Assembly (NCBI RefSeq): GCF_963921235.1
Contig: NC_086097.1
Span: 28,522,001-28,586,000 of the forward strand
Origin: Mobula hypostoma
Lineage: Eukaryota
Direction of reading: 5' to 3'
Length of the DNA: 64,000 bases
The notes below the pieces were generated by a model. The model made no database searches. It worked only from the letters and a program-made list of their open reading frames with translations, and was not told the origin of the DNA. Shown here in pieces: positions 2,954-63,881 of this stretch; the stretch's first letter is position 1, and each line of letters starts with the position of its first letter. The position numbers and the translations under genes are program-made.

Positions 2954-3078
2954 ACAACAGGAATTCTGCAGATGCTGGAAATTCAAGCAACACACATCAA
3001 AGTTGCTGGTGAACACAGCAGACCAGGCAGCATCTCTAGGAAGAGGTACAGTCGACGTTTCAGGCCGAGACCCTTCGT
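2954..3078 (-). mobile_element. Short PLE terminal-repeat insertion with hammerhead core
   Basis: TSD cagaagataagcaa at 2940-2953 and 3079-3092. Near-identical to 25369-25470 and 63777-63881. Confidence 0.8.
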
Positions 3079-3460
3079 CAGAAGATAAGCAACCTGGTTA
3101 GCGGATACTGAGTCACACTACAGCTTTGCAGACGAAGGAACCCAAGGGCAAGGCACTGGGTATGGTTAAAGCAGAGTTTGACAAGTTTATGATTATTAAG
3201 GGTGTCAAAGGTTGTGGGAGAAGGTGGGAGAATGGAGTTGAGGGGGAAAATAATCAGCCATGATGGAATGGCAGAACAGACTCGATGGGCCGAAAAGCCT
3301 AAACCTGCTCCTACGTCTTATGGTCTAAGTTACGAAAAGTTTACAAACAGGTGATTTTACAAACTATAAGGAAGCATAAAGCAAGCTAAGATCACCAGGA
3401 AAAACACAATAAAAATAACAACCTGGGCCCTAATCCAACAGGAGAGATCTTCCTCCTTAC

Positions 3461-3602
3461 CGTGCTCAGCTCACTACGCAGTTGCTGGTTCAGGTTGCTG
3501 GACTCAGCCAGTCGGGACTCGAGTGCCTGGACTTTCTCCTCCTTGATGTCTAGTGTTTTCTTCAGCGTAGATTCAATCCTGGTCTCCAGGAGCCTGTATT
3601 TA
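3461..3602 (-). CDS. CCDC88C: CCDC88-family exon 9 of 10 (142 nt)
   Basis: cttcag| and |gtaagg. (N)KYRLLETRIESTLKKTLDIKEEKVQALESRLAESSNLNQQLRSELST; entry phase matches. Confidence 0.92.
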
Positions 3603-3984
3603 CTGAAGACAACATAAAAAACCAGAAATGTTGGTCTTTGGCATGTCAAACTCACCCTTGTGATTAATACATGAAAGAAGCCAAGATTTTTATTCTTCAG
3701 CCTCCCGACAAATCCCTTCTCCATCAATTGCTCAACTCCAAGCAACTGCTGGGTCGGTCCCCTTCTGCACGGAGAAATCGACCTTTTTATTGTCACATGT
3801 ACCTATGTACACTGAAAAACTGTTCTGCATGCCGTACTTTATTGATCCATACTTTATTGATCCCAGGGGGAAATTGGTTGTGGTAGTTGTGGTATTGGTT
3901 GTGACATTGTGGTAGTACACAGGAAAACAATAACAGCGTGCAGAATAAAATGTTACAGTTACAGAGAAAGTGCACTACAGGAAG

Positions 3985-4066
3985 ATTGCGATGGCTGAGT
4001 GGTTAAAGTGTTGGACTTGAAATCCAATGAGGATATCCCACACAGGTTCAAAGCTTGCTCACAAAA
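3985..4066 (+). pseudogene. tRNA-Ser(TGA) pseudogene
   Basis: gcgatggctgagtggttaaagtgttggacTTGAAAtccaat...caggttcaaagcttgctc is colinear with vertebrate tRNA-Ser(UGA). Acceptor stem is broken and TTCGA has become TTCAA. Confidence 0.85.
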
Positions 4067-4596
4067 CTTACACTGCAGGCACCAGGACTGGGCAACTGAC
4101 TACCTCTAGTAATTTTAGAGTGCCACTGTAGCACAGGTGCTAGTGCAACGCTATTGCAGTTTAAAAAGTTCCCAGTTCATTTCTGGCACCGCCACTAAGG
4201 AGTTTGCACATCCTCCCCGTGAACAGAGTGGGTTTCCTCCACAGGCTCCAGTTTCCTCCCACAGTCCAAAGACGGACTGGTTAGTAGGATAATTGGTCAT
4301 TGTAAATTGTCCTGTGATTTGCCAATGCCCCCCACTCTGTAAGAAGGGAGGAAGACAGAAGAAACAAAATAATTAGCCTGTTAGCCTGACTTCAGTGGTT
4401 GGAATGGTTGCTTTCTATTGTTAAGAATGATGTTTCAGGGTACTTGGAAGCACATGATAAAATAGGCCAAAGTCAGCAGGGTTTTCAGAAGGCCTTCGAC
4501 AAGGTGCCGCACATGTCCTTGCCCACGGTATTACAGGCAAGCTACCAGCATGGGTAGAAGATTGGTTGGCTGGCAGGAGGCAAAGAATGGGGGAAA

Positions 4597-4734
4597 GCAA
4601 CACTCACAACACGCTGGAGGGTTCCGGCCCGAAACGTTGACTGATTGTTTTCACGGATGCTGCCCAACCTGCTGAGTTCCTCCAGCATGTTGTGAGTGTT
4701 ACTTTGACCCCAGCATCTGCAGATTATTTTGTTT
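4597..4734 (+). mobile_element. PLE terminal-repeat fragment inside CR1
   Basis: TSD aaagaatgggggaaa at 4582-4596 and 4735-4749. Confidence 0.75.
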
Positions 4735-7892: not shown

Positions 7893-8994
7893 TCAGGACC
7901 ACTACACCATCATCAAAGAATGAGAGAAACACTCAGCAGAATCACAGGCCGTTATCGTCCACCTCGTCCGTGGCAACTGCGGTACTTCTCTGTTCTAATC
8001 CCAACTGCATGTATCCTCCTAAGCCTCTCCTATCCACCATGAAAGATGAGGAGTGACTTGACGGAGGTGTATAAAATTATGAAGGGCGCAGAGTGGACTG
8101 TCACTGCCCTTCTCCCAGGGTGACAAACAATGTCCATCTAAGATGAGTGGAGGAAAGTTTAAGGGGGAAAGTCAGAGGTAGGTTTAATACACAGAGTGGT
8201 GGGTGTGTGGACTGCACTGCCGGGAATGGTGGTAGAGGCTGATATATTAGGGGATATTTAGAGGACTCTAAGATGGGCACATGGATGATAGAAAAATGGA
8301 GGGTTACGGGCTGTGTAGGAGAGAGAGGATTGATCTTGGTGTAAGTTATAAAGTTGGCACATCTTGGAATGAAGGGCTTGTACTGTGCTATGTTCTAAGA
8401 CAACACACACTCCCTTGGACTCTGTTACAAGCATCAGGATAGATTTTTGTACTCAAACGTCTGACGGGTGAATGGCAAAGACAGAAATGAACTCATAATT
8501 CCATTTAAATAATATATCACTAATACTGTCCTGCTGAAGGGCCCCAACCTGAAATGTCGACTGTAAGGAGCTACACGTGCCTGAATATGCATGCGATGTT
8601 TTAGGAACAGCTTCTTCCTCTCTGCCATCAGGTTTCTGAACAGTCCATGATCACAGCATCACTCTTACTCTTCTGCAGCACTTATCTGGTTTTTTAAATT
8701 GTAATTTACAGTAACTTCTTCTGCATTGCACTGTACTGCTGCCAAAAAAACTAATTTCACAACATACATCAGTGAAAATAAACCTGATTCTGATTTTCCT
8801 ACGTGTCCAAGCGTCGAGGTTCACGTTCTTGAAACTGGAAATTAAAGACTGATGAAATCCATTCAGTTAAACAGGTAACTACGGAGTTAAAAAACAAGGC
8901 CCCAGTCGAATCCAGTGTCATTCATCTGCACAGATTATTGATTGAAGGGTCAAATTTACAGCATACTTTGGCCATGTTTCGTCAATTCCTGCTA

Positions 8995-11849: not shown

Positions 11850-13713
11850 GGTCACCTCTCATCCTCCGACGCTCCAAGGAAAAAAGGTCAAGTTCATTTA
11901 AACCTATTCTCATAAAACATACTCTCTGATCCAAGTAGCATCCTGATAAATCTCCTCTGCACCCCATTATTACACTTTTTTGTAACTTATAGTAATTATA
12001 ATTTACTAAGAAAGCATATGGTGTATTGGCCTTCATTATTGTGTTCGTTTCTGATCACCTTGTGATAGGAAGGATGTGGAAGCTTTAGAGTGCAGAGGAG
12101 GTTCACCAGGATGTGTCTTATGAGGATAGGTTGAGCAAATTGGAGTTTTTCTCTTTGGAATAAATGAGGATGAGAGGTGACTTGATAGGGGTGTATAAGA
12201 TGATAAGAGGCATAGATCGATTGGACAGAGAGACTTTTCCCAGGCCATAAATAGTTAATATGAGGGGAGATAACTTTAAGGTGATTGGAGGAAAGTATGG
12301 GAGGAGGGGTGGGGGAACGTCAGAGGTAGGATGTTACACAGAGTGTAATGGAACATGCTGCCAGGGGTTGGTGGTAGAGGCAGATACATGAGGGACATTT
12401 AAGAAACTCTTAGATAGGCAGATGGATGATAGAAAAATGGAGGGCCATGTGGGAGGGAAGGGGTAGATTGATCTTAGCGATTACGTTAAAAGGTTGGCAT
12501 AACATCACAGGCCAAAGGGCCTGTTCTGTGCTGTACTTTTCAATGTTCTATGTTTATTGATTACCTGCTCTGCACTTTCTCTATGGCTATTATGCTTTGC
12601 TCTGTTTTGTCTTACCTTGTGTTACCTCAATGCACTGTGTAATGATTTGATCTGCATGAACAGTGTGCAAGACATGCTTTTCATTGTATCTTGGTACATG
12701 TGCCAATAATAAGCCAACTCCGATTCCAAACTGTCTTAAGATATAAGCACAACAGATTCTGCAGATGCTGGAAATCCAGAGCAACACACACAAGATGCTA
12801 ATCAATGCTCTCAAAAGCATCGATTGATTATTCCCCCCATTGATGATGCCTGACTTGCTGAGGTCCTCCAGCGTTTTGTGTAAGGTGTCTTAAAATATGC
12901 ATGTTTCTAATAGATTGCCAATTTTGTGAAGCCTACCCTGTGACAGCTACCACCTCCCCTCAGTCAGCTCACATGTCATTTCATCTTGCTCTTAAAGGAA
13001 ACAATTGACCCAAAATGTGTTGGTGGTTTCCTGCACACATCCTCAGTGGTAGTAATCACTGGGACGATAGGCAGACATGGGGAGTAAAAACAAGAAGTTT
13101 TGTTTCACAACATCTACCAGTGATTCCCACAGACGATCTGACACTGTTTCAAGGGCTAAAGGTTATAGTGATGGCGAGAGGCTGCTTAGACTGGGCTTTA
13201 ATTTTTTTGGAATAAAAGGTGTATAAAATGATTCTGGGTGGCACAACACTTTCCAGTACAGGTGACCCAGGTTCAATTCCCGCCACTGTCCGTAAGGAGT
13301 TTGTATGCTCTCCCCATGTGACTGTGTGGGTTTCCTCCAGGTGCTCTAGTTTTCTCCCACAGCCCAAAGACATACGAGTTGGTAGGTTAATTGGCCATTG
13401 TTAATTGTCCTGTGATTAGGCTCAGATTAAATCAGGGGATTATTGGGTGGTGTGGCTTCAAGAGTCAGAAGGGCCTATTCTGCGAAGTAGCTCAATAAAT
13501 CAATAAATAAGATGGCGTAAATATGAAAGATCTATTTTCCTTGACAAAGCAGTCAATAACATAGGCTTAAAGTAAAAGGTAGAAGGATTACAGGGGAGTT
13601 TTGAGGAAAGGTATTCTTGCTCTCAATTCTTGAGAGAGGGTCTGGAACTAAGAACTGAGAACATTATAGCACTGAACAGGCACTCCAGCCAATGATGTTG
13701 TACTGACCTTCTA

Positions 13714-15311: not shown

Positions 15312-16743
15312 CATCTGACTCCAAGATGAATCTAATACTTCCCTCCCATGTAACCCTCCATTTTTCTTTCACCCATGTGCCAATTCTGTTCCTCCAGTAG
15401 CTCTTTTGTTTTGCACCAGATTCCAGCATCTTAATGCTCCGGTTCCTGTTATCGTTTAGTCAGATAATTACCTGGATGTCAGAGGTAAGTTCTTTACACA
15501 GAGAATAATGGATGCCAGGGATGGTGGTAAAAGCAGATACGCTAGGGACATGGCTCTGAGACAGGCAGATGGATGAAAGACAAACGGAGGTCTATGTGGG
15601 AGGGAAGAGTTGGATTGATTCTCGAGTAGGTTAAAAGGTTGACACAACATCATTGGCTGAAGGGCCTGTACTGTCCATGAAAAGTCTCAACCTGAAATGT
15701 CAGCTGTTCAGTTCCCTCTGCAAATGCTGCCCGACCTGCTGAGTTCCTCCAGCAGTTTGTTTTTTTGCCTTTATGAGGATGAACAATTGACGAGGTCTAA
15801 CCTACAAAGTTACAAACCGTGAGATTCGGGCAATTGCCTTTTTTTTAAGAAAAGCCCAGCATGGACGCAAAGAGCTTCAACACCTCTATCAGCATCAAGA
15901 ATGATTGTTTCAAATTACATCAACACAAGAAGGAAATAACATCGGCCCTTTTGATCCTTTAACCTTCTCCAAGATCAACCTAATCCTTCCCTCCACCATA
16001 ACCTCCATTTTTCTATCAACCATGTGCCTATCAAAAAGTTTCTCAAATGCTCCTAATGTATCTGTTTTTACCACCACCCCTGAAATGAAAGTTCATAGTT
16101 CAACTATGAACTACTATTATCGACATATGTATATGTCAACATATTCTACCTTGAGATTCATTTTCTTATGGGTATTTATGAAAGTCAGGTGCAGGTATCC
16201 ATTTTAAACCGATAGACGCCCGAGAAGAGTTTATTTGTTGCATTCTCTGGGAAAGCACTAGATCCTTTTTCAAATATAATAACATTTATGAAAAACCATG
16301 CATAAACAGATAAAGATGGACAAGCTAAAAACAATGTGCAAAAGGAGAGAAACTATGCAAATAAAAATAAGAACTGAGAGCATGAATTCTTGGAAGTGAG
16401 CCTGTCGGTCGTGGAATCAGTTCAAAGTTGAGGTGAGTGAAGATATTCACTCTGGTTCAGAAGCCTGATGGCTGTGGGGTGATAACTGTTCCTGAACCTG
16501 TTGGTGTGGGACTCAAGGCTCCTGTAGCCCTTGCCCAATGGTTCCAACAAGAAAAGAACAAGGCCTGGATGGTGACAGTCTTTGATGATGGATGCTGCCT
16601 CCTTGCAACAGTGCTCCACATAAATGTTAAAGGCTTGCCTCCCTGAGCTAATCCCATTTTCCTAAATATTCTGTGAAGAATTATAATTACAATTAAGAAT
16701 TATAAAGAATAAATTCTTTGAAGAATTAGGGGATTGCTCTTAC

Positions 16744-20600: not shown

Positions 20601-20929
20601 TCAGAGTAGTCTTGATGAAGGGACTTGGCCAGAAACATCGACTGTTTAGTCTTTTCCATAAATGCTGTCCAGTCTGCTGAGTTCCTCCAGCATTTTGTGT
20701 GTGTTGCTTAGATTGCTCTGGATTTCCAGCATCTGCAGAATCTCTTGTGGTTAAACTATACTCTATTATTTTATTGCTTTTCCGTTGTACTTTGCCAATG
20801 AACTGATGAGATGAAATGATCTGGATGGATCTTATGCAGGAGAAAGTTTTTCCACTGTCCCTTGGTACATGTGACAATAATAAACCAATTTAACTTCATC
20901 TCTCTGGGGTATGCCCCTGAACGCACCTG

Positions 20930-21640
20930 AGAAAGTGCCGGAGGAACTCCACATGTCAAATAGCATCTATAGAGAGGAATAAACAGTCAATGCTTTGGGC
21001 CGAGACCCTTCATCGAACCGGAAAGGAAGAACGAAGTAGTCAGAATAAGGAGGTAGGGAAAGGAGAGGAGGACAAGAAGGTAGGGATAGGTGAAACCAGG
21101 TGAGGGGGAAGGTGAGTGGGTGGGGGAGGGAGAATGAAGTGAGAGGCTGGGAGGGTATAGGTGGAAGAGGTGAGGGGGAAGGTGGAGGAATCTGATAGGA
21201 GAGGTGAGTGGACCATGGGAGGAAGGGAAGGAAGGCACTGGAGGGAGATGATAGGCAGGTAAGGAGAAGAAAAGTGGGGAGAGGAGAGCCAGAGTGGGGA
21301 ATGGGAAAACAAGAAGGGGAGGAATTGCTGGAAGCTGGAAGAATCGATGTTCATACCATCAGACTGCAGACTATCCAACAGAATGTGAGGTATTACTCCT
21401 CAAACCTGAGAGAGGCCACAGTGTGACAGTAAACAAGGGCACATTGCAACATCGGAATGGGAATGGAAAGTAAAATTAAAATGGATGACGACCACAAAAT
21501 CTCGTCTATTCAGGTGCTCGACGAATATGCACCAGGTTTCACCGATGTGGGGAGTCTGCACCAGGAGCACTGGATCCAGCAGACAACCCCAACAGACTCA
21601 CAGGTGAACTGCTCGGGGCCCTGAATACCCGCTTTTCAGT
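20930..21640 (-). mobile_element. PLE 3' end: GIY-YIG C-terminus, CT-rich UTR, hammerhead-bearing repeat
   Basis: LQSDGMNID end motif; similar to 45370-45900; degenerate hammerhead core at about 20985-21015. Confidence 0.75.
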
Positions 21641-21947
21641 AATCACATGGTACGGCAGAGCATTTACTAACCAATGCAATCGGCTCACCAGTCGGATTCT
21701 GCAGCTGCTGGAAATCCAGAGCAACAAACACAAATTGCTGGAGAAACTCAGGTCCGGCAGCATCTACAGAGGAATCCTGATGAAAGACTAGGCTCACCAG
21801 GCTGCATGAGACCTGTATCCCCCTGTTCCCTAACGCAAGGGATTGTTCTGATGCTGGAGATGTTAAGTATTCCAGTCCTGATGAGGGTCTTGGTCCGAAA
21901 TGTCACCACACACATTCCGACACAATACTGCTCGTGTTTTGTGTTAC

Positions 21948-22085: not shown

Positions 22086-24012
22086 CTGACGGCAAGGCAG
22101 AGAATACAAGTCAACTTGGTCCCTCTGGAAGGATGAAGCCAACATCTTTAGTGCCTTTCGCCTAACATCCTGAAGTATCTTAGAACTCTTGTTAGGCACA
22201 TGGCAGATAGCAAAAAGGAGGGCTATGTCGGAGGAAAGGGTTAGACAAATCACCTGGGTTAGAGAAGTCACATAAAGGCAAAAATGTAATGCTGAAGCTT
22301 TATAAGGCATTGATCAGACTGCACTTGGGAGTATTGTAAACAGTTTTGGGCCTTTTATCTGAGGTAGAATCCGCTAACAATGGAGAGGGTCCAGAGGAGG
22401 TTCACAAGAATTATCCTGGGAATGAAAAGGTTACATATGAAGAGTGTTTGATGGCTCTGGGACTGTACTCACTGGAGTTTAGAACAATGAGGGGGGATCT
22501 CGTTGAAATTGGAGGGGAGAGATTTAAATCAGAGGCAGTTTCTTCATTCAAAGGGTTGTGTGCATTTGGAAGAAGCTGCCAGAAATAGTATTGTGGTAGG
22601 AAGATGAGCAACATTCAAAACCTATCTAGATAGGTACATGGACAGGAATGGTTTGGAGAGCTATGGACCAAATGTAAGCAGATGTGACTAGCTTGTGGGA
22701 AGACATGAGCTGGGCCAAATGGCCTGTTTCATGCTAAATAACTGTATGACTATGGACTAAGCACACAAGAGTAGCAGATAATATTGAAGACTACTGGAAT
22801 ATTGACCCTTATTACAAGAAAGCTGGTGTATAAACATTGTTAACAGAGACAGATTTATATAGCATGGAGGCAGGCCTTTCAGCCGAACTTATGCGTGATT
22901 CATCTGTAGATTTAATCCTTACTTTCATTGTGTGTTATGTTTATTATGGGTACTTCTGTACTTTACACCCTGGTTCTGAGAAACGTTGTCTCGTTTGACG
23001 GTATACATGTATATAGTTAAATGACAATAAACTTAACTTGAATTGATTTCGCAAGCCTAGGAAAAAAATTCACCTTGTCTATAGTCCTCATGATTTTATA
23101 CACTTCAATAAAATAACTTCTCAGTCTCCAATGAATAAAAGGCCCGCCTGCTCGACCTCTCTCTATCACTCAATCCCTCGAGTCGCAGCAACGTCCCAGT
23201 ATAGATCTGCTGCATTCTTTTCAGCTTAATGGTATCTGAAGCATGAGGAAGAGTAATTTTCTAGTTGGTTTGAGGGCCTTTGTAACTCCTAGTCTCTGAG
23301 TTCTATGGTGACAGAATCTATGTGTGTATTTAAAGCTGACATCGACAGATTCCTGAGCTTAGAGAATCATGTGGCATGGGAAAAAGGCAGGACAGTGGAC
23401 CTGTGGAATAAACACAAGATGCTGGAGGAACTCAGCAAGTCAGGCAGCATCAATGGAGGGGAATCAACAGTTGATGTTTCGGGCTGTGACCCTTCATCAG
23501 GACTCTGAAGAATGTTGGATCAGCCACCATCCCACTGATTGGTGGGACAGACTCAAAGGGTCAAATGGCCTACTCCTGCCCCAACTTCTTAACGTCTTAA
23601 ATGGGGATATAGTCATTTCTTGCTGGAAAGGTTTGAGCAGGTTTGGAATTATCACCAAAGACTCTAACAAATTTTCTACAGACGTACCATGAAGAGCATT
23701 CTAATTGGCCGCATTACCAGCTTGTATGGAGGGGCCACTGTGCAGAATGGGAAAAATCTGCTGAAGGTTGCAAATTCAGCCAGCGCCGTCATGGGCATCA
23801 GCCTCCCCAGGATCAATGATTATCTTCTAAAAGTCACACACACACACACACATGATCTACCCGTCTATCTATTGCAATATACTGTTGCCACGACCAAAGC
23901 CAGTGACATTAAAATTGATTTTGATAATGATTCCTCCCCTCCTGTGAGGGACAATGACATTAGGAACTTGGTAGACTGCTGGAAGCCAGAAGGTTCAGAT
24001 GCCAGTTCAGAC

Positions 24013-24197: not shown

Positions 24198-25432
24198 CTG
24201 CAAAGGAGATCAAAGCAAAGCCACACTTAGATTACTGTGCTCGGTTCTTGTCGACTCGTCATAGGAAGGATCTGGAATCTTAGTAGAGAGGAGATTTACC
24301 AGGATGCTGCCTGGACTGGAGAGCAAACTGTAAACTCAAGAGATTCTGCAGATGCTGGAAATCCAGAGGAACGCACACAAAATGCTGGAGGAACCCAGCA
24401 GGTCAGGCAGCATCGATGAAGTCTTGATGAAGGGTTTCAGCCCAAAAGTTCGACTGTATTCCCCTCCACAGATGCTGCTCACTTGCTGAGTCCCTCCAGC
24501 ATGTTGTGTGGCTTTAGAGAAAATGTCTTATGAGGATAGGCTGAACAATCTAGGGCTTTAATCACTGGAGTGAAGGAGGTAGGAGGTTGACGAGTGACTT
24601 GATAGAGGTGTATAAAATGATAAGAGGCACTGATAGATTGGACAGCCAGAGACTTTTTCCCGGGATGGCAGTGTTTATACAAGAGGACATAATTTTAAAG
24701 CAATTGGAGCAAAGTATAGAGGGACAGTCGGAGGTAGTTTTATTACACACAGAGTGGTGAGAACATGGAATGTCCTGCTGGGGGTGGTGACAGAAGCAGA
24801 TACATTAGGGACACTTAAGAGACTCTTAGATAGGCACTTGGATGATAGAAAATGGAGGGCTATATAGGAGGGAAGGGTTAAGATTAACCTTAGAGTAGAT
24901 TAAAGAGTCAGCACAACATCATGGGCTATGAACTAAACTTGTAAGTGGAGGCTTAGTGGAGGAACTCATGGAATGAGTGAGAGGAAGGAACTGGGAGTTA
25001 AGGGCTTGGAGAGGCAGTTCACTCACAGATGGAAGGCACAGCAATTGGCAAAAGATCCGAGCGGAAGTGAGAAGAATCTGATTTTACAAAGCTGGAGGTA
25101 CGGTAAAGGTTAAGCCAGAGATCTCGGCCCATGAACCAGAACAGAGCTGCGACAGACCACTGATGTTGACTGACCTTTTATCCTACCCCAAGGTCAATCT
25201 AACCCTTCCCTCCCACATAGCCCTCCATTTCTCTTTCATCCATGTGCCCATCTTAGAGTCTCTTAAATGTCCCTAATGTATCTGGCTTGACCACCGTCAC
25301 AGCTGCTGGAGACATTTGATGTTGACGTTGTGTTGACCTGGTTCAAGAGAACAACACTATTTTTGCTCAGCAACACACGTCAAAGTTGCTGGTGAAAGCA
25401 GCAGGCCAGGCAGCATCTCTAGGAAGAGGTAC

Positions 25433-25468
25433 AGTCGACGTTTCGGGCCAAGACCCTTCGTCAGGACT
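25433..25468 (-). ncRNA. Minimal type-I hammerhead ribozyme motif (PLE-associated), intact core
   Basis: AGUC-CUGACGA-A-GGG-ucuugg-CCC-GAAAC-GUC^GACU. Stem I AGUC/GACU, stem II GGG/CCC, palindromic ACGU stem III. Confidence 0.75.
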
Positions 25469-28400
25469 AACTGAAAGAAGATAGTAAGAGATTTGAAAGT
25501 GGGAGGGGGAGGGGGAGATCCGAAAAGATAGGAGAAGACAGGAGGGAGAGGGATGGAGCCAAGAGCTGGACAGGTGAATGGCAAAGGGGATATGAGAGGA
25601 TCATGGGACAGGAGGCCTAGGGAGAGTGTGAGTATTTTTGCTCTTTTTTTTTGCACTACTTATCTATGTATCTAGAGTGGATATATATATTATATGACAT
25701 TTCTTACTGTACTTTATAGTATTTTATGTGTTGCACTGCACTGCTGCCGTAAAACAACAAATTTCATGACATGTCAGTGATAATGAACCTGTTTCTGAAT
25801 CACTGTTCTCTAATTAATAACCCACAACATGAATCATGTAACCATTTTCTGACGTGACATTGTAAACATTAGATGGAAACTTCTAAACTAAACACAGCAC
25901 AGGAGGGAGAATTTGGCCCATCATTGCTATCCTGGTTCTGTATGTGGGTAATTCAGCTGGTCCCATCTCCCCCACTCTTTCCCGGATCCCGTGCGTAAAC
26001 TATTTGCTTTCAAGATCTTAACCATGCTCTCTACAGAACATGGTAATTGCACCTGCCACCACAAAGCCTTCAGACAATGCATTCCAGATCCTTATCACTC
26101 TCCACATAAAAATGCTCTTCCTTGAGTTACTCTGACATTCTAAGCATGACTGAATGTTCTAACTGGTTGCATCACCATCTGGTATGGAAGCTTCAACGTG
26201 CAGGATTGCAAAAGGTGACACAAAGTTGTCGACTCAGCCAGCTCAATCAGGGGCACAACCATCCCGGCCATCGAGGACGTCTTCAAGAGGTGGCGTCTCG
26301 TGAAGGCGGTATCTGTTGCTATGGACCCTCACCACCTAGGACATGCTCTTTTCTCATTCTTACTATCAGAGAGGAGGTTCAGGAGTCTGTAGTCACATAC
26401 TCAACATTTTAGGAACAGTTTTTTTCCTCTCTGCCATCATATTTCTGAATTGTTCATGATCACTACTGCGTTTCTCCTATTTACGTTTGTAACTTAGCCC
26501 CTAAGACCATAAATATGGGAGCAGAATTAGGCCACTTGGCTCATCAAGTCTGCTCCACCGTTTCATCAAGACTGATCCATTTCCCTCTCAGCCTCGATCA
26601 ATTTATAGTGATTTCATGTCTTTGTACTGTACTGCTGCTGCAAAACAACAAATTTTACATCACATACAGTAAGTCATTGACAATACATCTGATTCTGGCT
26701 CTTTTTTTGCTAATTACTTTCATTGACTCCTCTGGTTTCTGACCCTGTTGTCAAACAACTGAACTCTGTATTTCTTCACAGTTCTAAATATTGATATCAG
26801 AGTCCCACTCAATCTTCTCCACTACAAGAGAACTACAGCTTCGCCAGTGCACCACAAACTAAGGTCCTTCGTTCTTGAAGTTATCCTTCCAACTAGGTTC
26901 TGCCTTCAATCATTACTGAGGCACGTGCCCAGAACTGAACGCCGGCTGTGGTCAAGTCTCTGTTTTGTAAAGGTTCATAAGACCACAAGACATCGGAGCA
27001 GATTCAGGCTAGATGATTGATTGATGTACAAGTTGGTCATCTAACCTGGTATAGAGGCAAAAGAGAGAATTGAACCATCTAGTAGTTAAGTTTCCCGTAG
27101 GATAGCTGGCACTAGATCTGCACGCAGTTTTATCTGGGCGAACCCTTTCTAAAGCAGAGGTTGATTAGTAACAGCATCATAGGTTACAGGGAGAAGGCAG
27201 GGATAGTAAATCAGTCATAATCAAATGGTGGAACAAACTTAATGGGCTGAATAGCCTAATTCTGCTTCTACAGTACATCTTATGGTCTTATTACCATTGC
27301 TTCTTCACTCTACTCTCCCAGCACTCATCAAACAATCTGTTACTCCTGAAGCTTATACAAAAGCACATTCTCCACCACATCCTTGCTTCATAAGACGCAG
27401 GAGCAGAATTAGGCCATTTGGCCCATCGATTCTTCTCCACCATTCCATCCCGTTGATTTATCTCCCCTCAGAACCCCAGACTTCCCACTGGCAACAAAAG
27501 CAACGACACCACTCTTTCCTTTGTAACCTATATACGTGAAGTACACATAAATATGGCCTATAATAAATAAACACATCACAATGTACCAAAGTACCAAAAA
27601 GAAATACTCCAAGTGTGATCTAACTAGAGGGTTACAGAGCTACAACATTATCTTGCGGCTCTTGAACTCAGTCCCATGACTAATGAAAGGCAACACACCA
27701 TTCGACTTCTTAACAACCCTATCAATTTGCGCAGAAACTTTGAGGGGTTGATGGATGTGGACCCTCTGCACCCTCTTTTCTTTCCATTGCCAAAAATCCT
27801 GCTGATAACCCTGTATTCTGCCTTCAAATTCGACTTTCCAAAATCAATCACTTCACATTTTCCCAGGATGAATGGGGTTGAGAGGGATAATAAATATATA
27901 ATGTCAGAGCAGACTCAATGGGCCAAATGGTCCAATTCTGCTCCCATGTCTTATGGTCTAACATTAATAATGAATGAGTATTATCAATTGCAAAAAGCAG
28001 AAGGTTGCAGATGTTGAGTAAATGCATCTCTAATCGGGAACTTTTTTTTACAATGGTCAGAAATGGACAGGAAAGATGTCAATAAGTTTGAAAGAGTGGA
28101 GAGAGAATTTACAAGGATGCTGCTGGGACTTGAGGATCTGAATTATTGGGAAAGATTTGCCCTGGGACTTAGGAGAATGAGGGGAGATTTGATAGAGGTA
28201 TACAAAATTATAGATTGGGTAAGTGCAAGCAAGTTGGGTGAGACTAGAACTGGAAATCATGGGTATGGGGTTGAAGCTGAAATATTTAAGGGGAACCTGA
28301 GGGGAAGCTTTCTGTGCAAGGAGTGGCACCTCACGCAGCCTTCTGATCTGCGCCTTGTAAGGCAAGAAAATGCCCGACGCAGGCTTCTCATGGTCTGAGT

Positions 28401-31395: not shown

Positions 31396-32212
31396 CTGCC
31401 CAGAAGTGGAATCAGAATCAGAATTCCCAGCATCATTCCTGGTGAAAGGTCTCAGCCTTAAAAGGCAACTCTTTATTTCCCTCCGTAGGTTGCTCCATCA
31501 GCAATTTGTGAGTGTGGATCACCAGAGGGCACAGCCTCAGAGAAGAAGGACGTCCTTTCAGTATAGAGATGAGGAGGAATTTCTTTAGCCAGAGGGTGGT
31601 GAATCTGTGGAATTCATTGCCACAGATGGCTGAGGAGGTCAAGTCATTGAATATATTTAAAGCAGAAGATGACAGGTTCTTGATTAGTAAGGGTGTGAAA
31701 GATTATGGGCAAAAGGCAGGAGAATGGGGTTGAGAAGGATAATGAATCAGCCATAGTGGAACGGTAGAGCAGACTCAATGGGCCAAATGGCCTGATTCTG
31801 CTGCTACATCTCAATGTTTTATGGTCCAGGTGAGAGGCAGATGGAGAAAGGGAGAATGGGGATAGCGACACGGCTGGGAGATGATAGGTAGAGGCAACAA
31901 AAGGCTGCTGATGGTGGGATCCAATAGGAGAGGTAGTTGGAACCAAAGAAGGGTGATGGGCAGGGAAGAGCATATGTGATCAGTGTGGGGAGGGGGCCCA
32001 GTGGGATGGAAGTGTGGGTGATGGGCAGATGGAATGAATCAGAATCAGGCTTATTATCACAATCATGAAATTCATTGCTTTGCGGCAACAGTACAATGCA
32101 ATACATAAAATAAACCATAAATTACAATAAGAAACTTGTATATAAATAATTCAATATGTATAGGAAAAAGAAAGCAAAATAGTGAGGTATTGTTGATGGG
32201 TTCACGAACAGT

Positions 32213-35938: not shown

Positions 35939-36689
35939 TCACGAACAGTTTAGAAATCAGAGTGCATTTGGAAAAGTCTCCCAGCCCTTTCTGAGTTTGT
36001 GACCATGATTCTAGGGTTACTTTGGAATGCCACTTAGTTCAGTAATGTCTGTCAGGAAGAAAACTGAACGGAGTGATGCCCTTGCATATCACTCAGTCTG
36101 AGCACAGATAGGAATGGGGAATTCCTGGCCTAGACAGTGACATCAGAATCAGATTTGTTAACACTGACATTTGTCATTTTGTAGTAGCAGTACAGTGCAA
36201 TACAAAAAACATACAAAATTACAATAAAAACTATACAAAATATATAAGTAGAGCAAAAAGAGAGCAAAAATAGTGATACAGTGGAAACAGAAATGTTTAA
36301 AAGGCATTCAGCCAGGCTCATGAAAACACAGGGATCAGACACAAAATGCTGGAGGAGCTCAACAGGTCAGGGATAATCCATGGAGGGGAATAAACAGTCA
36401 ACATTTCGGGCTGATACTCTTCATCAGGGCTGGGTTGTTTGAGATTTTCAGCATCTTTTCTATGTGTGCTGCTGAAAATTTCCAGCATCTGCAGAATCGC
36501 TTGCGTTTGAGAACAGAAAGATACAGGACACTTGCAGGCTGGAGGTATGAGTTTCAATTGGCATCACATTCAGATGGGATTAGCTTGGGGGGGGGGGCGC
36601 TGTTGAACCACGAGCAAGTAGGACGCACCCTCCTGTAGCTCTGGCAGATTTGATATTAAAACTTCATTTACACAAAGTCAGTTTGAGGT

Positions 36690-40040: not shown

Positions 40041-41517
40041 GGAGGAAATCAGCAGGCCAGGCAGCATCTATGGAAAAGAGTATTGTCGACATTTTGAGCT
40101 GAGACCCTTCATCAGCCCTCATTAAGGGATCAGCAGTGGAAAGTTCCTGAGGTGTCAAGATCTGTGAAGATCTATCCTGCGCCCAACATATTGATTCAAT
40201 CACATAGAAGGCACGACAGCGGCTATATTTCATTAGGAATTCGAGGATAATTTGTATGTCACCAAAGACGTGCACAAATTTCAGCGGATATACCATGGAG
40301 AGCATTCTAACTGGTTGCATCACTGTCTCATATGGAGAGGCCACCGTACAGGATCAGGAAAGACTGCAGGAAGTTTATAAACTCATCTGGCTCCATCATG
40401 GGGACTAATCTCCCCAGCGTCCAGGACATCTTCAAAAGGCAATGCCTCAAAAAAAGGTGACATCCATCATTGAGGAACCCAAACACCCTGTACATGCCCT
40501 CTTCTCATTGCCACCATCAAGGAGGAGGTAAGAGAGCCTGAAGACGCACACTCATTGATTTGGGAATGAGTTCTTCCATTGCTCCGTATGATTTCTGAAT
40601 GGATAGTGAACCCATGAACACTACCTCACTGTTTTCCTTCTTTTTTTGCACTATTTTATAGCAATTTTGTAATTTGTAGTTTTTATTATTACGTCCTGCA
40701 ATACGTTGCTGCTGCTAAACGAATATCACGACATACGTCAGTGACATTAAACCCGATTCTGATTCAGACTCTTAGGCTGGCACATGAGTGAAGGAAATAT
40801 GAAGGGCTATGTGTGAGGGAATTTTACCTCGTTAAAAAGTCAGCACATCATGGACTGTTCTCTGTTCCAAATACCCCATGAAATGAGCCAGCAAGATGCC
40901 CATTTCTGGGAACAGATCCGTGATGGTCTTGTGGGGGGGTGGGAGTATATTCTGCCAACATGTACGACTTGAAAACTTTTTAAATCTCTGCACGTCCACT
41001 GGGAGGTCAGAGCCCAGTGTGTTTGCAGGCCCAAGAGGCCTGTCCTGGGGTTGAGGGCCTGTGGATGTGCATAGTTGTGAAGGGAGAAATGCGGCTTGTC
41101 TTTGCTGCTGTTGATTTGTTGCATGCCATGCTCTGTGCTGTTTCGCCAAGCACTGTGTGCAGGCTACGTTGGTGCTGGAATGTGTGGCGACTCCTGCAGG
41201 CTGCCCCAACACATCCTTAGGTTGTTGGATGTTAACACAAATGGCACTTAAACTACATGTGTCGATGTACACTTGATAAACTTGAATTGTGTAAAAAAAC
41301 AACAGTTGGAAAAAAAAGACATGGGTAACTGTGGTAAAATGCAACACCCACCAAATGGGAAAGTTTACACAAAACACCACAGATCTTCAGACACATTAAT
41401 TTTTCTTGACTTATTATTTGTCTTGCACTCTGAACAAAAGCGCAATTATGATCTCAACACCAGCTTTGTAGTGGGCACTCTCTCCAAGCTGGGTAGACAG
41501 TGAGAAGCAACACTTAC

Positions 41518-42222: not shown

Positions 42223-43855
<1,633 letters not shown>

Positions 43856-45369
43856 TAACTACTAATTAACCATCAGGTTTTATGACTTATTCTTGACTTC
43901 CAAAGAACCTCTGGATCAATATCACCAGATTCAATACACATTCAGTGACCCCCTTGTTAGGAACACCTTGTAAATGCAAATATCTGATCAGCCAATCATG
44001 TGGCAGCTACTCAATACAGAAACGCATGCAGACTTGGTCAAGAGGTTCATTTGTTGTACAGAACAAACACCAAAAATGTGATCTAAGTGACTTCAACTAT
44101 CGAATGATTGTTGGTGCTTGATGGGTTGATTTGAGTATCTCAGAAACTGTTGATCTCCTGGCATTTTCACACACAATAGTCTCCAGAGTTTACAGGAAAA
44201 TGAAAAGGTATCGAGTAAGTGGACATTCTATGAGTGAAAATACCCTGGTCAGAGGAGAATGCCCAGACAGTTTCAAGTTGATAGGAAGCTGAGAGTAACT
44301 CAAATAACCATGCTTTACAAGAGTGATGTGCAGAAGAGCATCTCTGAATGTATAATATGTTGAACCTTGAAGTGAGTGGGCTACATCAGCAGAAGACCAC
44401 ACTGGGTTCCACTCCTGTATCCAATAATGCAGCTACCGAGTGTATCCAGACTTAGAAATATATTTCCATTCAGCCCATCTTGTCTGAGGACTCTCAGAGC
44501 AATCTCTTCAAACTCATTTCCCACTTGTGTCTGAAATCTATTTCTCCCTCTCATACCCACACACAGATTCTTGCCCATTGACACCCCAGTGAATCTTCTA
44601 CCACCCACTGACATGACGGACAATTAACCCATCAACATGGGAAGAAACTGGGCAGCACTTGGGTGAAACACACAATGTGGCAGAGTAGACAGACAACTCT
44701 ACATCATCAGCACCAGAGACCAGCGTTCAGTCCAAGTCACTGGAGCTGGGCCACTGTGTTCCCTTCCGGTTATTGATCTATTAAATACTAGACTCTACAA
44801 CAGTTACTTCCCCCCAGGCTGATCAACACCTCCACACATTAACCCTCCCCAAGAGTCCCCACCATCAGCCACATCCACATCAGCCACTCGTCTCCATGGC
44901 CCCTCAGCATCCACTGCCACTTTTACACTTCTAGTCCACACCTCATACCTACACTGACACACACCTACTCACAAACAAGAGAAAATCTGCAGATGCTGGA
45001 AATCCGAGCAACACACACAAAATACTGGAGGAACTCAGCAGGCCAGGCAGCACCTCTGGAAAAGAGTGCAGTGGACGTTTTGGGCTGAGACCCTTCGGCA
45101 GGACTGGAGGAGGGTCTCCGCCCGAAATGTTGACTGTACTCTTCCATCCCAACCTACTCTACTGCCTTACTGTGTTTTCATCTGCCCTGCTGCTACCTAG
45201 AGGAGTTCCTCTTGCCAAGAGTCACTTAGTGACTTTATCATTTCCTGTCTGTCACCTGATGTTCAGATACTTCTGCATCTCATGTCACTTTACGTACATA
45301 CAATCAGTCTATACAAGCTAACCCTATGTATGTACAGCCACACTCAAACAATCACTTCTCAACGTGTGG

Positions 45370-46760
45370 GGCTGAAGTAAGAAGCTGGAAAAGAAGGAAT
45401 CTGATAGGAGATTGGACCATGGGCAAAAGGGAAAGACAGGCAACAGGGTGAGGTGATTGACAGGTGAAGAAGAAGAGGTAAGGCGGGGGGGAGAGTGAGA
45501 ATAGGGAATAGAAAAGGGAAGGGGGAGCTGGAAAATCACCAAGAGTTGGAGAAATCAATGTTCCTGCCCTCAGATCAAGGGCTAGCCAGACAGAATATGA
45601 AGTGTTGCTCTTCCAACCTGAGACAAGCCTCACTGCGGTAGTACAGGATGCCATAGACCAACATGTCAGAATGGGAATGGCGATTGGCCACCAGTAATCC
45701 TGCATTTTATGGATGGATCGAAAGTGCTTGACAACGTTGTCCCTCAACCTACATCAGGTCTTACCATTGTAGCGATTGCATCAGCACCAATGGATACAAT
45801 AGACTGCCCAAAACGATTCACATCAGTGTTGCCTCACATGGAAGGACTTTTAAGGCCCTGAATGGGGTGGAAGGAGGTGAATAGCCAGATGTAGAACTTC
45901 TTTCAATTGTAGGGTTAAGTGTCAGGAAGGAGATTATTGGGAAGGGTCAAGTGGACAAGGGAATCACGGAGGGAACAATCCCTTGGGAAAGTGGAGAGTG
46001 GAGTTGAGGTAAAGGTGTGTTTGGTGGGAGGATCCCATTGAAGATGTGGAATCTGCGGAGAATTGTGTGCTGAATGTGGAGGCTGATGGGTTGATAGGTG
46101 AGGACAAGAGGAACTCCATCTTTGTTAAGGGATGAGGGTGGATGTCTGGGAAATGGAGATGATGCCGATGAGGGCAGCATTAGTGGTGGGAAGGTGGTGT
46201 CCTGACGAGGAAAGCCTCATCCTGGAAATAGATGTGGTGGAGACAAAGGACTGAAAAAAAGGAGACAGGTTGGGAAGAGGTAATGGTCAAGATAGCTGTG
46301 TGAGTCAGTCCAGTTATAAAAGATATTCGTAGACAGCTTGTCTCCAGAGGTAGAGACAGTGAGATCAAGAAAAAGCAGAGGGGTGTCAAAAATGGACCAA
46401 GTGAATTTAAGGTCAGGGTGCAAGTTGGAGGCAGAGTTAATGAAAGTGATGAGCTCAGCATAATGAAAGACATGGAGCAGCACCAATCTAGTCATCACAG
46501 TAGCGCAGAAAGAGTTAGGGAGCTTGGGGAAGGCTTGGAACATGGACTGTTCCACATAGCCAACACAAAGGCACGCATAGCTGGGGCTACGTGGATACCC
46601 TCGGCTAGACTGAGCTTGGAGAAAGTGCGAGGAGCTGAAAGAGAAATTGTTCAGTGTGAGGATCAGTTTTGCCGGATGGAGGTGGGTGGTGTTGTTGGGG
46701 AACTGCTGTTGAGAAAGGAGCGAGGAACTTTACAGTTTTCTTAATGGGGGATAGAATTGT
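45370..46760 (-). mobile_element. Degenerate PLE ORF (RT C-terminal half plus GIY-YIG)
   Basis: LHPDLKFT...FLDLTV...TDSHSYLD; PLVLTYQP; VYCIH; NIDFSN. Confidence 0.8.
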
Positions 46761-47735: not shown

Positions 47736-47739
47736 CAGT

Positions 47740-52312: not shown

Positions 52313-53462
52313 ATAACCTCACTATTTAACAACCAGAGGTCCCATAGTCACATTGCTTAATCACTAGAGAGCACACAATCCCACTGTTTGATCACCAGAG
52401 ACCCCATAAACTCATGGATTACTCACCGGATAACCTACAGTATCACTGTTTAACCATTAGCAACCCCATAACCACCAGACACCCCACATTACCATTATTT
52501 AATAACCAGAGCCCATGCAATCGTCCATCTCATTGCTGAAAATTCCACAATCACAACCACACTCAAAGTGCTGGATGAACTCAGCACATCAGGCATGGAG
52601 AGGAATAAAGAGTCAAAGGTTCATTTATTATCAAAGTATACAACTCTGAAATTCTTCTCTGATGTTTCGGGCCAAGACCCTTCATCAGGCCCGAAACAGT
52701 GACTGTTTATTTCCCTCCATAGATGCTGCCCGACTTGCTGAGTTCCTCCTGCAATTTGTGTGTGTTCTTCAAGATGCATCTGCGGAATCTCGTGTTTGTG
52801 CCCACAACCTCACTGCGTTGACTGTGCACCCACACTGCCAACACAGTGCCCCAGGGTTGGACACCTTGTCCTCACTGATCTAAGTTGGCAAGGTCACTGA
52901 ACATCATGTCATCAAACTAATGCCATGCGCTGTGCCATCCTCACATTCCAGTCTGTTGATCTCTTTTGGGGACTTCTATTTTCACATTTTAGCTCTCGGT
53001 TCCCTCAAATTAAATATAATTTTAATTTACCTCCAAAAGGTCCTAATTTACCCCCTTGTTTGACACAGTGCTCGTGTGGGTGTCTGTGTCTCTCTGTGTC
53101 CGAGTATCCTCTTCCTATTATGGTTTGCATTCTAACAAAGCCTATAAATCAGAACATTTTATTTCTGTATGTATTATTAAGGATTCAGTTCCCTTTCCAT
53201 GGAAAAAGCTGATACACGTATATGGGAAGATGCTGTCCAGATATACAACAGTGAATGCACAAAGTACAAACAGGATACAAAGGTCCTGGTAAATCAGTTA
53301 ATAAGGTCCCGCCCACAAATTTATCAACATAACTGTGTATATTTTGGCAGGAGTAAGGGGAGGTTTTATTGAACATTAACTGCAGGATACTGGTCCTAAA
53401 ACACAATCCACTGTGCATGCATATAATCTAACCCACTGTTCACACACATAATCTAACACGCA

Positions 53463-60740: not shown

Positions 60741-61210
60741 TTTTATATATTTTTTCTCAGCTCAAATTGGTAAAACCTGAGGTATGGGCATAGCATACTC
60801 ATTTCAGAATTGCTAGGAACTTTTGGACTAATCCAGTAGTGTTTAGTATTGTGACTTTCTGGAGATTTACATGAATATTGCTGTGTAGGCTTAATTGTTT
60901 AATGCTATTGTGTAGTGACTTTGGGATGATACCAGTTGTACAAACATAGATTACTATTGGGACAATGTATACTCTGCTCATGTTCCATAGTCTTTCAATT
61001 TTCTCTTTTAATTCTGCATCTTTCTGGGGGCGGGGTGTCACTTATTGATTTCTGCATGTTATGTATGTTTGGAATGGCTATATCTATTAAGTAATTTGCT
61101 CTTGCTTGTTTATCCTGTAATATTATACCTGGCCAATTATTATGAATTGTCCTATCTGTAATAATGGCTTGTATGGTGTCTTTTATGAGTTTGTGCTTTA
61201 AAGCAAGATT
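60741..61210 (-). mobile_element. 3' fragment of an R4/Dong-like RLE non-LTR retrotransposon
   Basis: ITDRTIHNNWPGIILQDKQARANYLIDIAIPN (degenerate RPD..D) and ELKEKIERLW..VPIVI..TGIIPK. TSD tttattatta at 60731-60740 and 61211-61220. Confidence 0.75.
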
Positions 61211-61388
61211 TTTATTATTAATTATTATTATTTATTTTCTTTTTATATTTGCACAGTTTCTCTTGCACATTAGCTGTTGGTCTATCTTTGTTTATGTGTA
61301 GTTTTTAATCGATTCTATAATGTTTCATTCTTTCTAATGTGAATACCCACAAGAAAATTAATCTGAGGGTAGCATATGGTGACATCTA

Positions 61389-62602
61389 CAGTGGCATGCA
61401 AAAGTTTGGGCACCCCTGGTCAAAATTTCTGTTACTGTGAATAGCTAAGCGAGTAAAAGATGAACTGATTTCCAAAAGGCATAAAGTTAAAGATGACACA
61501 TTTCTTTCATATTTTAAGCAAGAAAACTTTTTTATTTCCATCTTTTACAGTTTCAAAATAATGAAAAAGGAAAAGGGCCTGAAGCAATAGTTTGGGCACC
61601 GTGCATGGTCAGTACCTAGTAACACCCCCTTTGGCAAGTATCACAGCTTGTAAACACTTTTTGTAGCCAGCTAAGAGTCTTTCAATTCTTGTTTGGGGGA
61701 TTTTCGCCCATTCTTCCTTGCAAAAGGCTTCTAGCTCTGTGAGATTCTTGGGCCGTCTTGCATTCACTGCTCTTTTGAGGTCTATCCACAGATTCTCAAT
61801 GATGTTTAGGTCGGGGGGCTATGAGGGCCATGGCAAAACCTTTAGCTTGCGCCTCTTGAGGTAGTCCATTGTGGATTTTGGGGTGTGTTTAGGATCATTA
61901 TCCTGTTGTAGAAGCCATCCTCTTTTCATCTTCGGCTTTTTTACAGACAGTGTGCTGTTTGCTTCCAGAATTTGCTGGTATTTAATTGAATTCATTCTTC
62001 TCTCTACCAGTAAATGTTCCCCGTGCCACTGGCTGCAACACAAGCCCAAAGCATGATCGATCCACCCCAGTGCTTAACAGTTGGAGAGGGGTTCTTTTCA
62101 TGAAATTCTGCACCCTTTTTTCTCCAAACATACCTTTGCTCATTGCGGCCAAAAAGTTCTATTCAAAAGGTTCAAAGGAACATCTAAACAAGCCTGATGC
62201 ATTTTGGAAACAAGTCCTGTGGACTGATGAAGTTAAAATAGAACTTTTTGGCCGCAGAACTAGAAGCCTTTTGCAAAGAAGAATAGGCGAAAATCCCCCA
62301 AACAAGAATTAAAAGACTCTTAGCTGGCTACAAAAAGCACTCACAAGCTGTGATACTTGCCAAAGGGGGAATTACTAAGTACTGCCATGCAGGGTGCCCA
62401 AACTTTGCTTTGGGTCCTTTTCCTTTTTTGTTATTTTGAAACTGTAGAAGATGGAAATAAAAAAGTTTTCTTACTTAAAATATTAAAGAAATGTGTCATC
62501 TTTAACTTTATGCCTTTTGGAAATCAGTTCATTTTTTACACACTTAGCTATTCACAGTAACAGAAATTTTGACCGGGGTGCCCAAACTTTTGCATGCCAC
62601 TG
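61389..62602. mobile_element. Rearranged Tc1 with two 3' ends
   Basis: TA|cagtggcatgcaaaagtttgggcacccc and its inverse. [10 protein letters not shown] on minus; WKQVLWTDEVKIELFG on plus. Confidence 0.88.
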
Positions 62603-63776
62603 TATGCACGTTCTTTGACAATAAATTTACTTTGAACTTTGAACAACACACTTTCGTCTTGGACTGGAGATAATTTCTGTTACACTGTGGGCAACAGGGA
62701 ATAAGCAGGTGCACATTATTCACTCTTCATAATAATGGCTTTAACCGGTGGAACGAGTCTTTCAGTAATTTAGACATGTGCAATTGAGGTGAGATTGGAA
62801 ATCTATCACCTTTCATTTACGATCCTAAAATTACCAGTAATGCTGCCTTTTCAATTCCTTTTCAGCTGAGTCAACAGAAGAAGTTCTGCTTCTTCTATGG
62901 CACCTCTGCAGTTCCTAACCAATGAGAATGAGGCTTCAGAAATACCTGTAACCCAACACCGTATCTAGTTAACCACCGCTCAACCTCTGATTCAATGTCA
63001 TAATAATCAAGGAGTCGGTTTTCACACTGCTCAGACTGGAACAGCCTCCTGGTGCTGAGCTGCTGAGACTGAAGAAGCCGTTTCTGAGTTTCAGATTTTG
63101 TCTTTACATAGTGCCTTTCACTGTAGCACAGCTGGTTTTACAGCCATCTGCATCCTTCTGAAATGCGGCCAGCGTGGGAAACATGACAGATAATTTCCGC
63201 ACAGAAACGTCACTTGTGCGTAACCAAACTTTCTATTTCAGAGATGTTGGTTGGCTGAACGCAAAGGACAAGAAAGGAAAACTCCCCTGCTCTTCGGAGA
63301 ATATTAAGAAGAACCTGAGGGAGAAGCCACAGTCTAAGATGGGCTGAATGGCCTGTTTCTATGTCGCAGTGCTCTATGACTCTATTGCATTGGTAACAAC
63401 TGCATGGGAGGTCAGTTTGGGGTGGGGGGTGGGGAAGGTGGCGGTTCACTTTAACTTTTAAAATGAACAACCCAACCTACAGCAGTAAGTTTGCAGATGA
63501 TACAAAGAAAGGTTGGTGATGTTTTGGATAGTGTAGAAAGTTGTCTGCTACAGCGGGACATTGATAGGAAGCGAGAGTTGGGCTGAGAAGTGATGAAGTT
63601 CAATCCAGAAAAGTGTGAAATGAGTCACTTTGAAAGGGCCAACTTGAAGGCAGGGTACAAGGTTAATGCAGAATTCTTAGCAATGTGGAAGAACTGAGGG
63701 CCCTTGGGGGTCATATCCATAGATCCCTCAAAGTTGTCTCACAAGTTGACAAGGTGGTTAAGAAGCCTTATAGTGT

Positions 63777-63881
63777 AAACAACAGGAATTCTGCAGATGC
63801 TGGAAGTTCAAGCAACACACATCAAAGTTGCTGGTGAACGCAGCAGGCCAGGCAGCATCTCTAGGAAGAGGTAGTCTGTTG
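63777..63881 (-). mobile_element. PLE terminal-repeat fragment in CR1
   Basis: TSD gccttatagtgt at 63765-63776 and 63882-63893. Confidence 0.75.

Follow-up and report, generated by a model that had tools for sequence, protein, structure and literature searches.

Short hammerhead-bearing repeats occur at 19 loci in a 64,000-nucleotide stretch of DNA from Mobula hypostoma (assembly GCF_963921235.1, contig NC_086097.1, positions 28,522,001 to 28,586,000; hereafter the window) and are, as judged from their sequence, the terminal pseudo-LTR (long terminal repeat) part of an autonomous endonuclease-positive (EN+) Penelope-like element (PLE), whose Neptune-type label rests on homologues. Four points taken together are held with high confidence: the repeats come from the 3′-end of the PLE, their own 3′-ends lie at two sites, these sites face outward in inverted inserts and would have been primed there, and hammerhead cleavage does not define the unit. 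On balance, and with moderate confidence only, we favor the reading that the short copies are by-products of an autonomous Neptune-type PLE whose reverse transcriptase (RT) ran off the 5′-end of the RNA at helix I of the hammerhead. The part that seems new is this sharp 5′ edge at helix I; the kind of element, the hammerhead, the tail and the inversions are already published, and searches of openly accessible papers and preprints turned up neither this elasmobranch family nor a 5′ stop at helix I.

BLAST and nhmmer searches, together with a profile made from 18 pieces, were used to collect the repeats. A degenerate pattern of the hammerhead core, with at most 3 mismatches allowed, has 11 matches, as against a mean of 0.05 and a maximum of 2 in 100 shuffles. 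An earlier reading of the same DNA from its letters alone (the sequence-only reading) had listed starts for about 15 copies, each of which is a real copy by BLAST and nhmmer; it overlooked three copies (236-260, 12749-12881 and 21692-21790), one inverted arm (36449-36497) and the body of the PLE (45385-46710). Loci are designated by short names, namely 12750 (12745..12885), 15675 (15672..15762), 20985 (20925..21670), 23469 (23408..23504), 24335 (24337..24510) and 45070 (44972..45151), and the others by their starts. Positions in the element are counted from the hammerhead C3 (= 0), with the predicted cut between +27 and +28. All end statistics cover one window and 25 arms, from which the piece at 236..260, found later, is excluded.

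The link of the repeat to a PLE is carried by two copies that continue upstream of the hammerhead and by a remnant of the element body, and it bears out the view of the sequence-only reading that the copies are PLE-derived and PLE-mobilized. The minus-strand locus 20925..21670 is a longer, 5′-truncated PLE copy with an endonuclease-coding C-terminus (about 21340-21670), a pyrimidine-rich 3′ untranslated region (UTR), the hammerhead and the short 3′ site, and runs upstream through this UTR into the C-terminus of a ray PLE protein (tblastn E 1.6e-5, P0010 258-350). It has the endonuclease end and the 3′ UTR in common (E 5e-33) with the decayed autonomous PLE body at 45385..46710 (minus strand), which contains RT motifs, thumb, endonuclease and the start of the 3′ UTR, interrupted by many stops and frameshifts, and whose own hammerhead end is missing. 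The best protein matches of this remnant are in rays and sharks, which points to an elasmobranch host, and its part 45554-46702 aligns with their RT proteins (tblastn E 6e-47 to P0001 and 9e-35 to P0010). Pfam gave no match in the decayed PLE frames of the window. Fuller homologues have a CxxxxCxxC linker behind the RT and, at the C-terminus, a weak GIY-YIG match, which lies under the curated cut-off (E 3e-4 in P0008 and 2e-3 in P0009); the window pieces align with the corresponding C-terminal region of P0010, so that the evidence for a GIY-YIG endonuclease is indirect and weak. A CX2-5CxxC linker between RT and EN is present in P0008, P0009 and P0010 and decayed in the window copy; the layout of RT, zinc-finger linker and EN is that of Neptune and also of Nematis, as described in PMC8557442.

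The second upstream-extended copy, at 25369..25632 on the minus strand, is young and has 160 nt of upstream pseudo-LTR, a fully intact minimal hammerhead (25432-25469), the short 3′ site and an 11-bp target-site duplication (TSD). Contigs pass 25625 with agreeing letters (agreement 0.65-0.78) in all four public runs, the data of which are assembled contigs only. Because both 20925-21670 and 25369 continue upstream and the contigs beyond 25369 agree, the unit is the element's own 3′-end. Summed contig depth, although not a copy count, is about 30 in the flank but rises to millions over the repeat, with 74,380 contigs aligned in run X1, and shows a very high copy number of the repeat. Pattern scans of contigs from metagenomes, viruses and prokaryote genomes gave no match. 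The 45070 insert was considered as the 3′-end of the 45385 remnant and was rejected, as about 240 bp of unrelated DNA lie between the two and its 5′-end joins the inverted arm.

The majority consensus of 13 copies comprises a helix I of 5 bp, CUGAUGA, an extra A, a helix II of 4 bp with a 4-nt loop, GAAA, a palindromic CG and UC. It is by sequence a complete minimal type-I hammerhead, for which self-cleavage is predicted, and its complete catalytic core justifies the motif call of the sequence-only reading. The core boxes, the extra nucleotide at 9/10.1, the palindromic 15.2-16.2 and helices I and II, by which minimal hammerhead ribozymes (min-HHRs) are recognized, are all present in it. Together with CUGANGA and GAAA boxes, G10.1-C11.1 and a short helix I, these features are shared with the min-HHRs of PLE pseudo-LTRs (PMC4209133), which are likewise mostly single dispersed motifs ascribed to truncated PLEs, with close pairs on opposite strands, and which are described there as dimer-dependent. 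Unlike the Schistosoma min-HHR, with a helix II of 7-8 bp (PMC4209133), that of the present element has 4 bp; unlike the present analysis, the available part of the same report names no cartilaginous fishes and maps no copy ends. Among the 16 arms scored, the catalytic boxes are intact in six, and the boxes together with helices I, II and III in two, 25369 and 36336L, which are 11 kb apart. Covariation was 0.101 as against 0.129 after shuffling (462 of 500 shuffles were equally high), so the helices gain no support from it, as is expected if decay is neutral; the variants listed within the motif in the four public runs lie, loop II positions excepted, at CpG sites, which likewise fits neutral decay. 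Rfam returned no hammerhead match in the window at E up to 10, and its mir-503 and CLRN1-AS1 rows were below threshold and were dismissed as chance. An ATG within the core box opens only about 15-30 codons.

A hammerhead of this kind recalls non-LTR retrozymes, which also have a type-I hammerhead, are non-coding and are akin to PLE pseudo-LTRs (PMC7229834; bioRxiv 10.64898/2026.07.22.740005), and the sequence-only reading had called the family retrozyme-like, the idea being that tandem units are cleaved by the hammerhead to linear or circular monomers and reinserted. Besides the complete consensus, one young insert that begins 5 nt past the cut site (63777) and the report of retrozymes in one chondrichthyan genome (bioRxiv 10.64898/2026.07.22.740005) are in keeping with it. 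However, retrozymes are described as tandem, with at least two complete units, and processed at the cut site, whereas the copies here are dispersed singles or inverted pairs that the cut site does not bound. No tandem array of the unit is present among 19 TRF rows, and the cut site is not a point of permutation for the units: of 20 arms, only that of 63777 has its 5′-end within 5 nt of it, as against 1.4 expected, so that the clustering of insert ends at the predicted cleavage site that had been anticipated did not appear. Furthermore, the motif is minimal, not canonical, and fully intact in only the two distant arms, and the 'goes back' joints are single contigs of depth about 10 against millions for the repeat. 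Retrozyme-type propagation is therefore considered extremely improbable.

Most of the 3′-ends fall into two classes about 34 nt apart: among the 25 arms, 10 end at +82 to +96 and 10 at +118 to +130, and 5 elsewhere. Young copies occur in both classes, with ends at +95 (25369) and +129 (2954 and 63777), and a stem-loop is predicted for the region between the two sites. PLEs have an optional tail of 30-40 nt, and the two 3′ classes match it; in the anole element, this tail is bounded by two internal start sites of the RT (PMC11167929). In that element, PAc (Poseidon, Anolis carolinensis; PMC11167929), the two sites that bound the tail likewise lie in a stem-loop region downstream of the hammerhead, at least about 100 nt away from it, and there too is no sign of cleavage shaping the inserted template. 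PAc differs in belonging to another clade and in having an open reading frame (ORF) that begins at helix II, and the available part of the report mentions no preferred 5′ stop for it. The 3′-ends at the cut site in 21874, 236 and 52534 were examined as candidate cleavage products and discarded, because 52534 resumes beyond an insert of 44 bp and decay in the other two is too advanced for a call.

Seven of the 19 loci are self-inverted, with their 3′ sites facing outward, and in four of them one short site is paired with one long site. In 4597..4734, the minus arm (4597-4620) has the short site and the plus arm (4618-4734) the long site outward, and the insert has a 15-bp TSD and is absent from a paralogous LINE (long interspersed nuclear element). 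The left side of 12745..12885 ends at the long site and the right at the short one, with a 13-bp TSD containing one mismatch. In 24337..24510, which is also empty in a paralogous LINE, the left is the long site and the plus arm runs from −4 to the short site. In 36336..36500, the minus arm spans an intact hammerhead between the short site and −4/−6, and the plus arm extends to the long site. The other three are 21692..21790 (long site on the minus arm; weak plus arm of 16 nt that begins at −2; 10-bp TSD), 44972..45151 (minus arm from the long site to −4/−7, plus arm from +7 to +42, 8-bp candidate TSD) and 52534..52798 (minus arm to −1, into which 44 bp of foreign DNA are inserted; plus arm between +15 and the long site). 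The sequence-only reading was right to describe 4597, 24335 and 45070 as self-inverted, and the head-to-head inversion that it noted is real; its statement that many copies are hairpin-shaped narrows to these seven loci, about a third. Head-to-head inversions and a tail at one end only have been described for PLEs (PMC3846280, PMC8557442), and the inserts resemble those of EN+ PLEs in the same reports in 5′ truncation, adjacent inverted pseudo-LTRs, TSDs and solo pseudo-LTRs. Unlike the TSDs of Adineta PLEs, which have 8-10 bp (PMC3846280, PMC8557442), those found here have 10-15 bp, and unlike canonical EN+ PLE inserts, many inserts comprise nothing but arms of 90-135 bp whose 5′ edge is fixed. 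The 44-bp piece in 52534 (52617-52660) lies at the predicted hammerhead cut site of the arm and has words of 13-16 nt in common with 31086-31101 and 55005-55017; it is likely a later insertion, the position of which at the cut site may be due to chance.

At the 5′ side, 13 of the 15 arms that reach this part of the hammerhead stop at about −4 to 0 (test window −7 to +3), that is, at the helix I base, some 30 nt before the cut site, and two read through this edge. The binomial p for this clustering is 6e-14 against the hazard in +80 to +4, or 6e-12 after correction for 100 windows; in a strict subset with an independently fixed junction, for which six arms were dropped, seven of nine stop there (p 2e-6, corrected 2e-4). 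Sequences upstream of the clustered arms have a pyrimidine fraction of 0.35-0.58, as against 0.84-0.87 in the pseudo-LTR, and have nothing in common save the inverted partner arm. Copy ends are thus non-random, with clusters at the helix I base and at the two 3′ sites, and the catalytic core is retained in the consensus, both as the sequence-only reading would have it. In the public runs, the best-supported class of loose ends among those listed is at 25468, which is −4, in four of four runs, with long and poorly agreeing tails. These loose ends are read as a mixture of true junctions and subfamily divergence, because their consensus resembles the upstream sequence of the older subfamily, and the drop in depth upstream of the hammerhead is not used as evidence, because older subfamilies map solely on the conserved part. 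Three features coincide at −4: the boundary of helix I, an acceptor-like AG behind a pyrimidine tract, and an initiator-like motif.

In the mechanism proposed, the two 3′ sites would represent two internal RT start sites, by analogy with the anole enzyme, and inverted pairs would arise by priming on each of the nicked target strands, with microhomology joining the two resulting cDNAs. The RT would run off the RNA 5′-end at the base of helix I, most likely the transcription start, and priming at the start sites nearest to this end would yield unit-length, 'strong-stop-like' inserts of 90-135 bp. Hammerhead cleavage would not set the unit, and the motifs would decay neutrally after insertion. 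In the anole PLE, internal RT starts bound the tail, both strands are extended and cleavage is not required (PMC11167929), and transcription of Drosophila virilis Penelope begins within the pseudo-LTR, at a promoter internal to it (PMC2377424). For the helix I stop being a transcription start in the pseudo-LTR, we consider the chances to be even.

Several observations weigh against this account. The clustering window was picked after seeing the data, some ends were called by eye on decayed copies, and with a threefold background hazard the corrected value for the strict subset becomes 0.17, which is not significant. In three arms the match goes on for another 2-3 nt in the upstream direction from −4, and the loose-end consensus at 25468 matches the upstream sequence of the older subfamily, diverging from the reference exactly there. 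The initiator-like motif is common, being present at 1.1% of window positions and 12 times in 496 nt of upstream pseudo-LTR, and the same letters at −4 also fit a splice acceptor and the limit of helix I. In D. virilis, the transcription start (371) is 45 nt upstream of an intron (416-491) whose 3′-end maps to helix I, and hence does not itself lie at helix I (PMC2377424, PMC4209133). Finally, the inverted inserts 21692, 45070 and 52534 are irregular, with no clean pairing of short and long sites, the old part of the tree is poorly supported, and neither a tandem or partial-tandem nor a full-length PLE copy is present in the window.

With the same PLE origin, the 5′ stop might instead be structural: a cDNA hairpin and a weak hybrid on the upstream U/C tract could free the RT, or a 5′-to-3′ exonuclease could trim the RNA to a protein-bound helix I. 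The monomeric hammerhead region indeed folds as a long, extended hairpin, which has its base at −5 and closes at helix I, the 5′ strand of which is the stop zone, and the anole hammerhead is protein-assisted (PMC11167929); the two arms that read through and the three that match a few nucleotides past −4 also suit such a stop. However, the stability of the hairpin is unremarkable (z −1.45 to +0.31 in five copies), and a barrier in the RNA template would be expected to halt the RT at +28 to +32, on the 3′ side of helix I, and only 1 of 20 arms has its end there. A structural stop is therefore thought rather unlikely.

The AG at −4/−3 raises the further idea that the edge is a spliceosomal 3′ splice site and that spliced RNA served as the template. 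In both upstream-extended copies a pyrimidine-rich tract precedes this AG, and the D. virilis intron end maps to the helix I 5′-end (PMC4209133). Nevertheless, the 13 clustered arms have no common upstream exon, the junction adjoins the other arm in inverted inserts or the target flank (also in 15675 and 23469), and the AG itself is retained in 6 of the 13 arms. Splicing is thus a very improbable source of the edge.

The short units, which outnumber upstream-extended copies 13 to 2, could also form an independent non-autonomous family, with units from −4 to +130 that contain an internal Pol II promoter and RT start sites and are mobilized in trans. Such an equivalent of a SINE (short interspersed nuclear element), dependent on the PLE, is the defensible form of the idea in the sequence-only reading of a separate non-autonomous, SINE-like family. 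One fixed 5′-end, two fixed 3′-ends and TSDs would be expected of it; the D. virilis promoter is internal (PMC2377424), and non-autonomous PLE derivatives are known (PMC8557442; bioRxiv 10.64898/2026.07.22.740005). In contrast, in a tree of 14 rows, the old part of which is poorly supported, no short-copy lineage stands apart from the ORF-linked or upstream-extended copies; young short and long copies are 94-97% identical, and the 5′ edge recurs in old and young subfamilies. In this tree, upstream-extended copies are intermixed with short ones in the young clade and the old group alike. A SINE in the Pol III sense is not supported: the units have no A box, no exact B box and no tRNA-like head, and B-box-like words with one mismatch are on the opposite strand in two of three units. 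Because copies that continue into the PLE 3′ UTR and the endonuclease end belong to the same subfamilies, a separate family is not needed, and we regard it as distinctly unlikely.

Under the favored run-off reading, it is a tentative possibility that the first 135 nt or so of the PLE transcript, with RT starts at +90 and +128, act as a self-contained mini-retroposon, the cDNAs of which, primed internally, would integrate singly or as inverted pairs and of which solo copies that keep the promoter could be mobilized again. If true, this would explain the thousands of solo minimal hammerheads in animal genomes and the origin of inverted pseudo-LTRs, and the hammerhead would be a marker of the RNA 5′-end, not a processor of the template. 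A high-copy, recently active family with short, TSD-bounded inserts provides a natural record of RT start and stop sites, which bears on the transposition cycle of PLEs and on the role of their hammerhead (PMC11167929, PMC4209133).

Insertion hallmarks were found at several of the loci. The TSDs of 12-15 bp reported by the sequence-only reading at 2954, 4597 and 63777 are exact, with 14, 15 and 12 bp, respectively, and further TSDs are exact at 25369 (11 bp) and 21692 (10 bp) and match in 12 of 13 bases at 12750. A TSD score of at least 10 was reached by 6 of the 15 inserts scanned, as against 1.3% of 300 random intervals, and 8 of the 15 have none; the null rate for the 8-bp candidate at 45070 is 3.3%. 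The inserts 4597, 23469, 24335 and 63777 are missing from paralogous LINE copies in the window, and paralogue alignments yielded no usable empty site for 2954, 12750, 20608, 31437, 36336 and 52534. Simple PLE inserts are in host sense in seven cases and antisense in five, with no clear orientation bias.

The subfamily of 2954, 25369 and 63777, previously thought to look young, has 94-97% identity to 25369 and a clade support of 100/100; it is the sole supported clade of the tree, in which 1 of 11 branches is supported, the old part being the poorly supported one. The minus-strand unit at 2954..3078 starts at the C3 box, where it shares 3 nt with the TSD, and extends to the long 3′ site; its 14-bp TSD flanks it at 2940 and 3079. 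That at 63777..63881 (minus strand) lies inside a LINE, extends from +33, 5 nt beyond the cut site, to the long 3′ site, and has 8 extra flank-like nucleotides and its 12-bp TSD. These 8 bases (63874-63881) at the 5′ junction resemble the neighboring flank (TRF period 16), in the manner of templated repair.

The remaining copies are older or decayed. On the plus strand, 8528..8565 is a decayed piece of the hammerhead only, with its 5′-end at −3; 15672..15762 is a decayed unit with its 5′-end at about −3, right behind another repeat, and the short 3′ site; 20608..20752 is an old unit from −4 to the long 3′ site; 21874..21904 is a hammerhead piece lacking the extra A, with its 5′-end at −4 to −7; and 31437..31512 is a decayed unit from −2 to the short 3′ site. 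On the minus strand, 236..260 is an old partial hammerhead piece within a LINE-like repeat, 23408..23504 is an old unit within a LINE-end repeat, running from −4 to the short 3′ site with the paralogous flank resuming at 23507, and 40034..40115 is an old unit from 0 to the short 3′ site.

The window is vertebrate intronic DNA with many repeats, LINEs and Tc1-like elements among them. The host gene has coiled-coil exons at 55378-55812, 18633-19997 and 3392-3802 of the minus strand, one of them with a weak HOOK-domain match, and resembles a gene of the CCDC88/Daple type. A minus-strand frame of 758 unbroken codons at 33192-35468 encodes a LINE-type RT (RVT_1 E 1e-33) and is a young copy from the commonest LINE family of the window; decayed RT frames at 10878-11694 and 32197-33146, by eye, belong to two other LINE types, which we take to be L2-like and RTE-like. 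Frames at 14368-14850, 42617-43186 and 57852-58490 look by eye like transposase fragments of what we assume to be the Tc1 type. Arms at 61387-61739 and 62255-62604 form a 353-bp inverted repeat of 92.6% identity, resembling DNA-transposon ends. A tRNA-Ser(TGA)-like sequence at 3985-4067 on the plus strand was detected by Rfam (38.6 bits) and ARAGORN and has several broken acceptor-stem pairs, so that it is probably a pseudogene or a SINE head. A purine-rich G/A simple repeat of 650 bp occupies 17659-18309.

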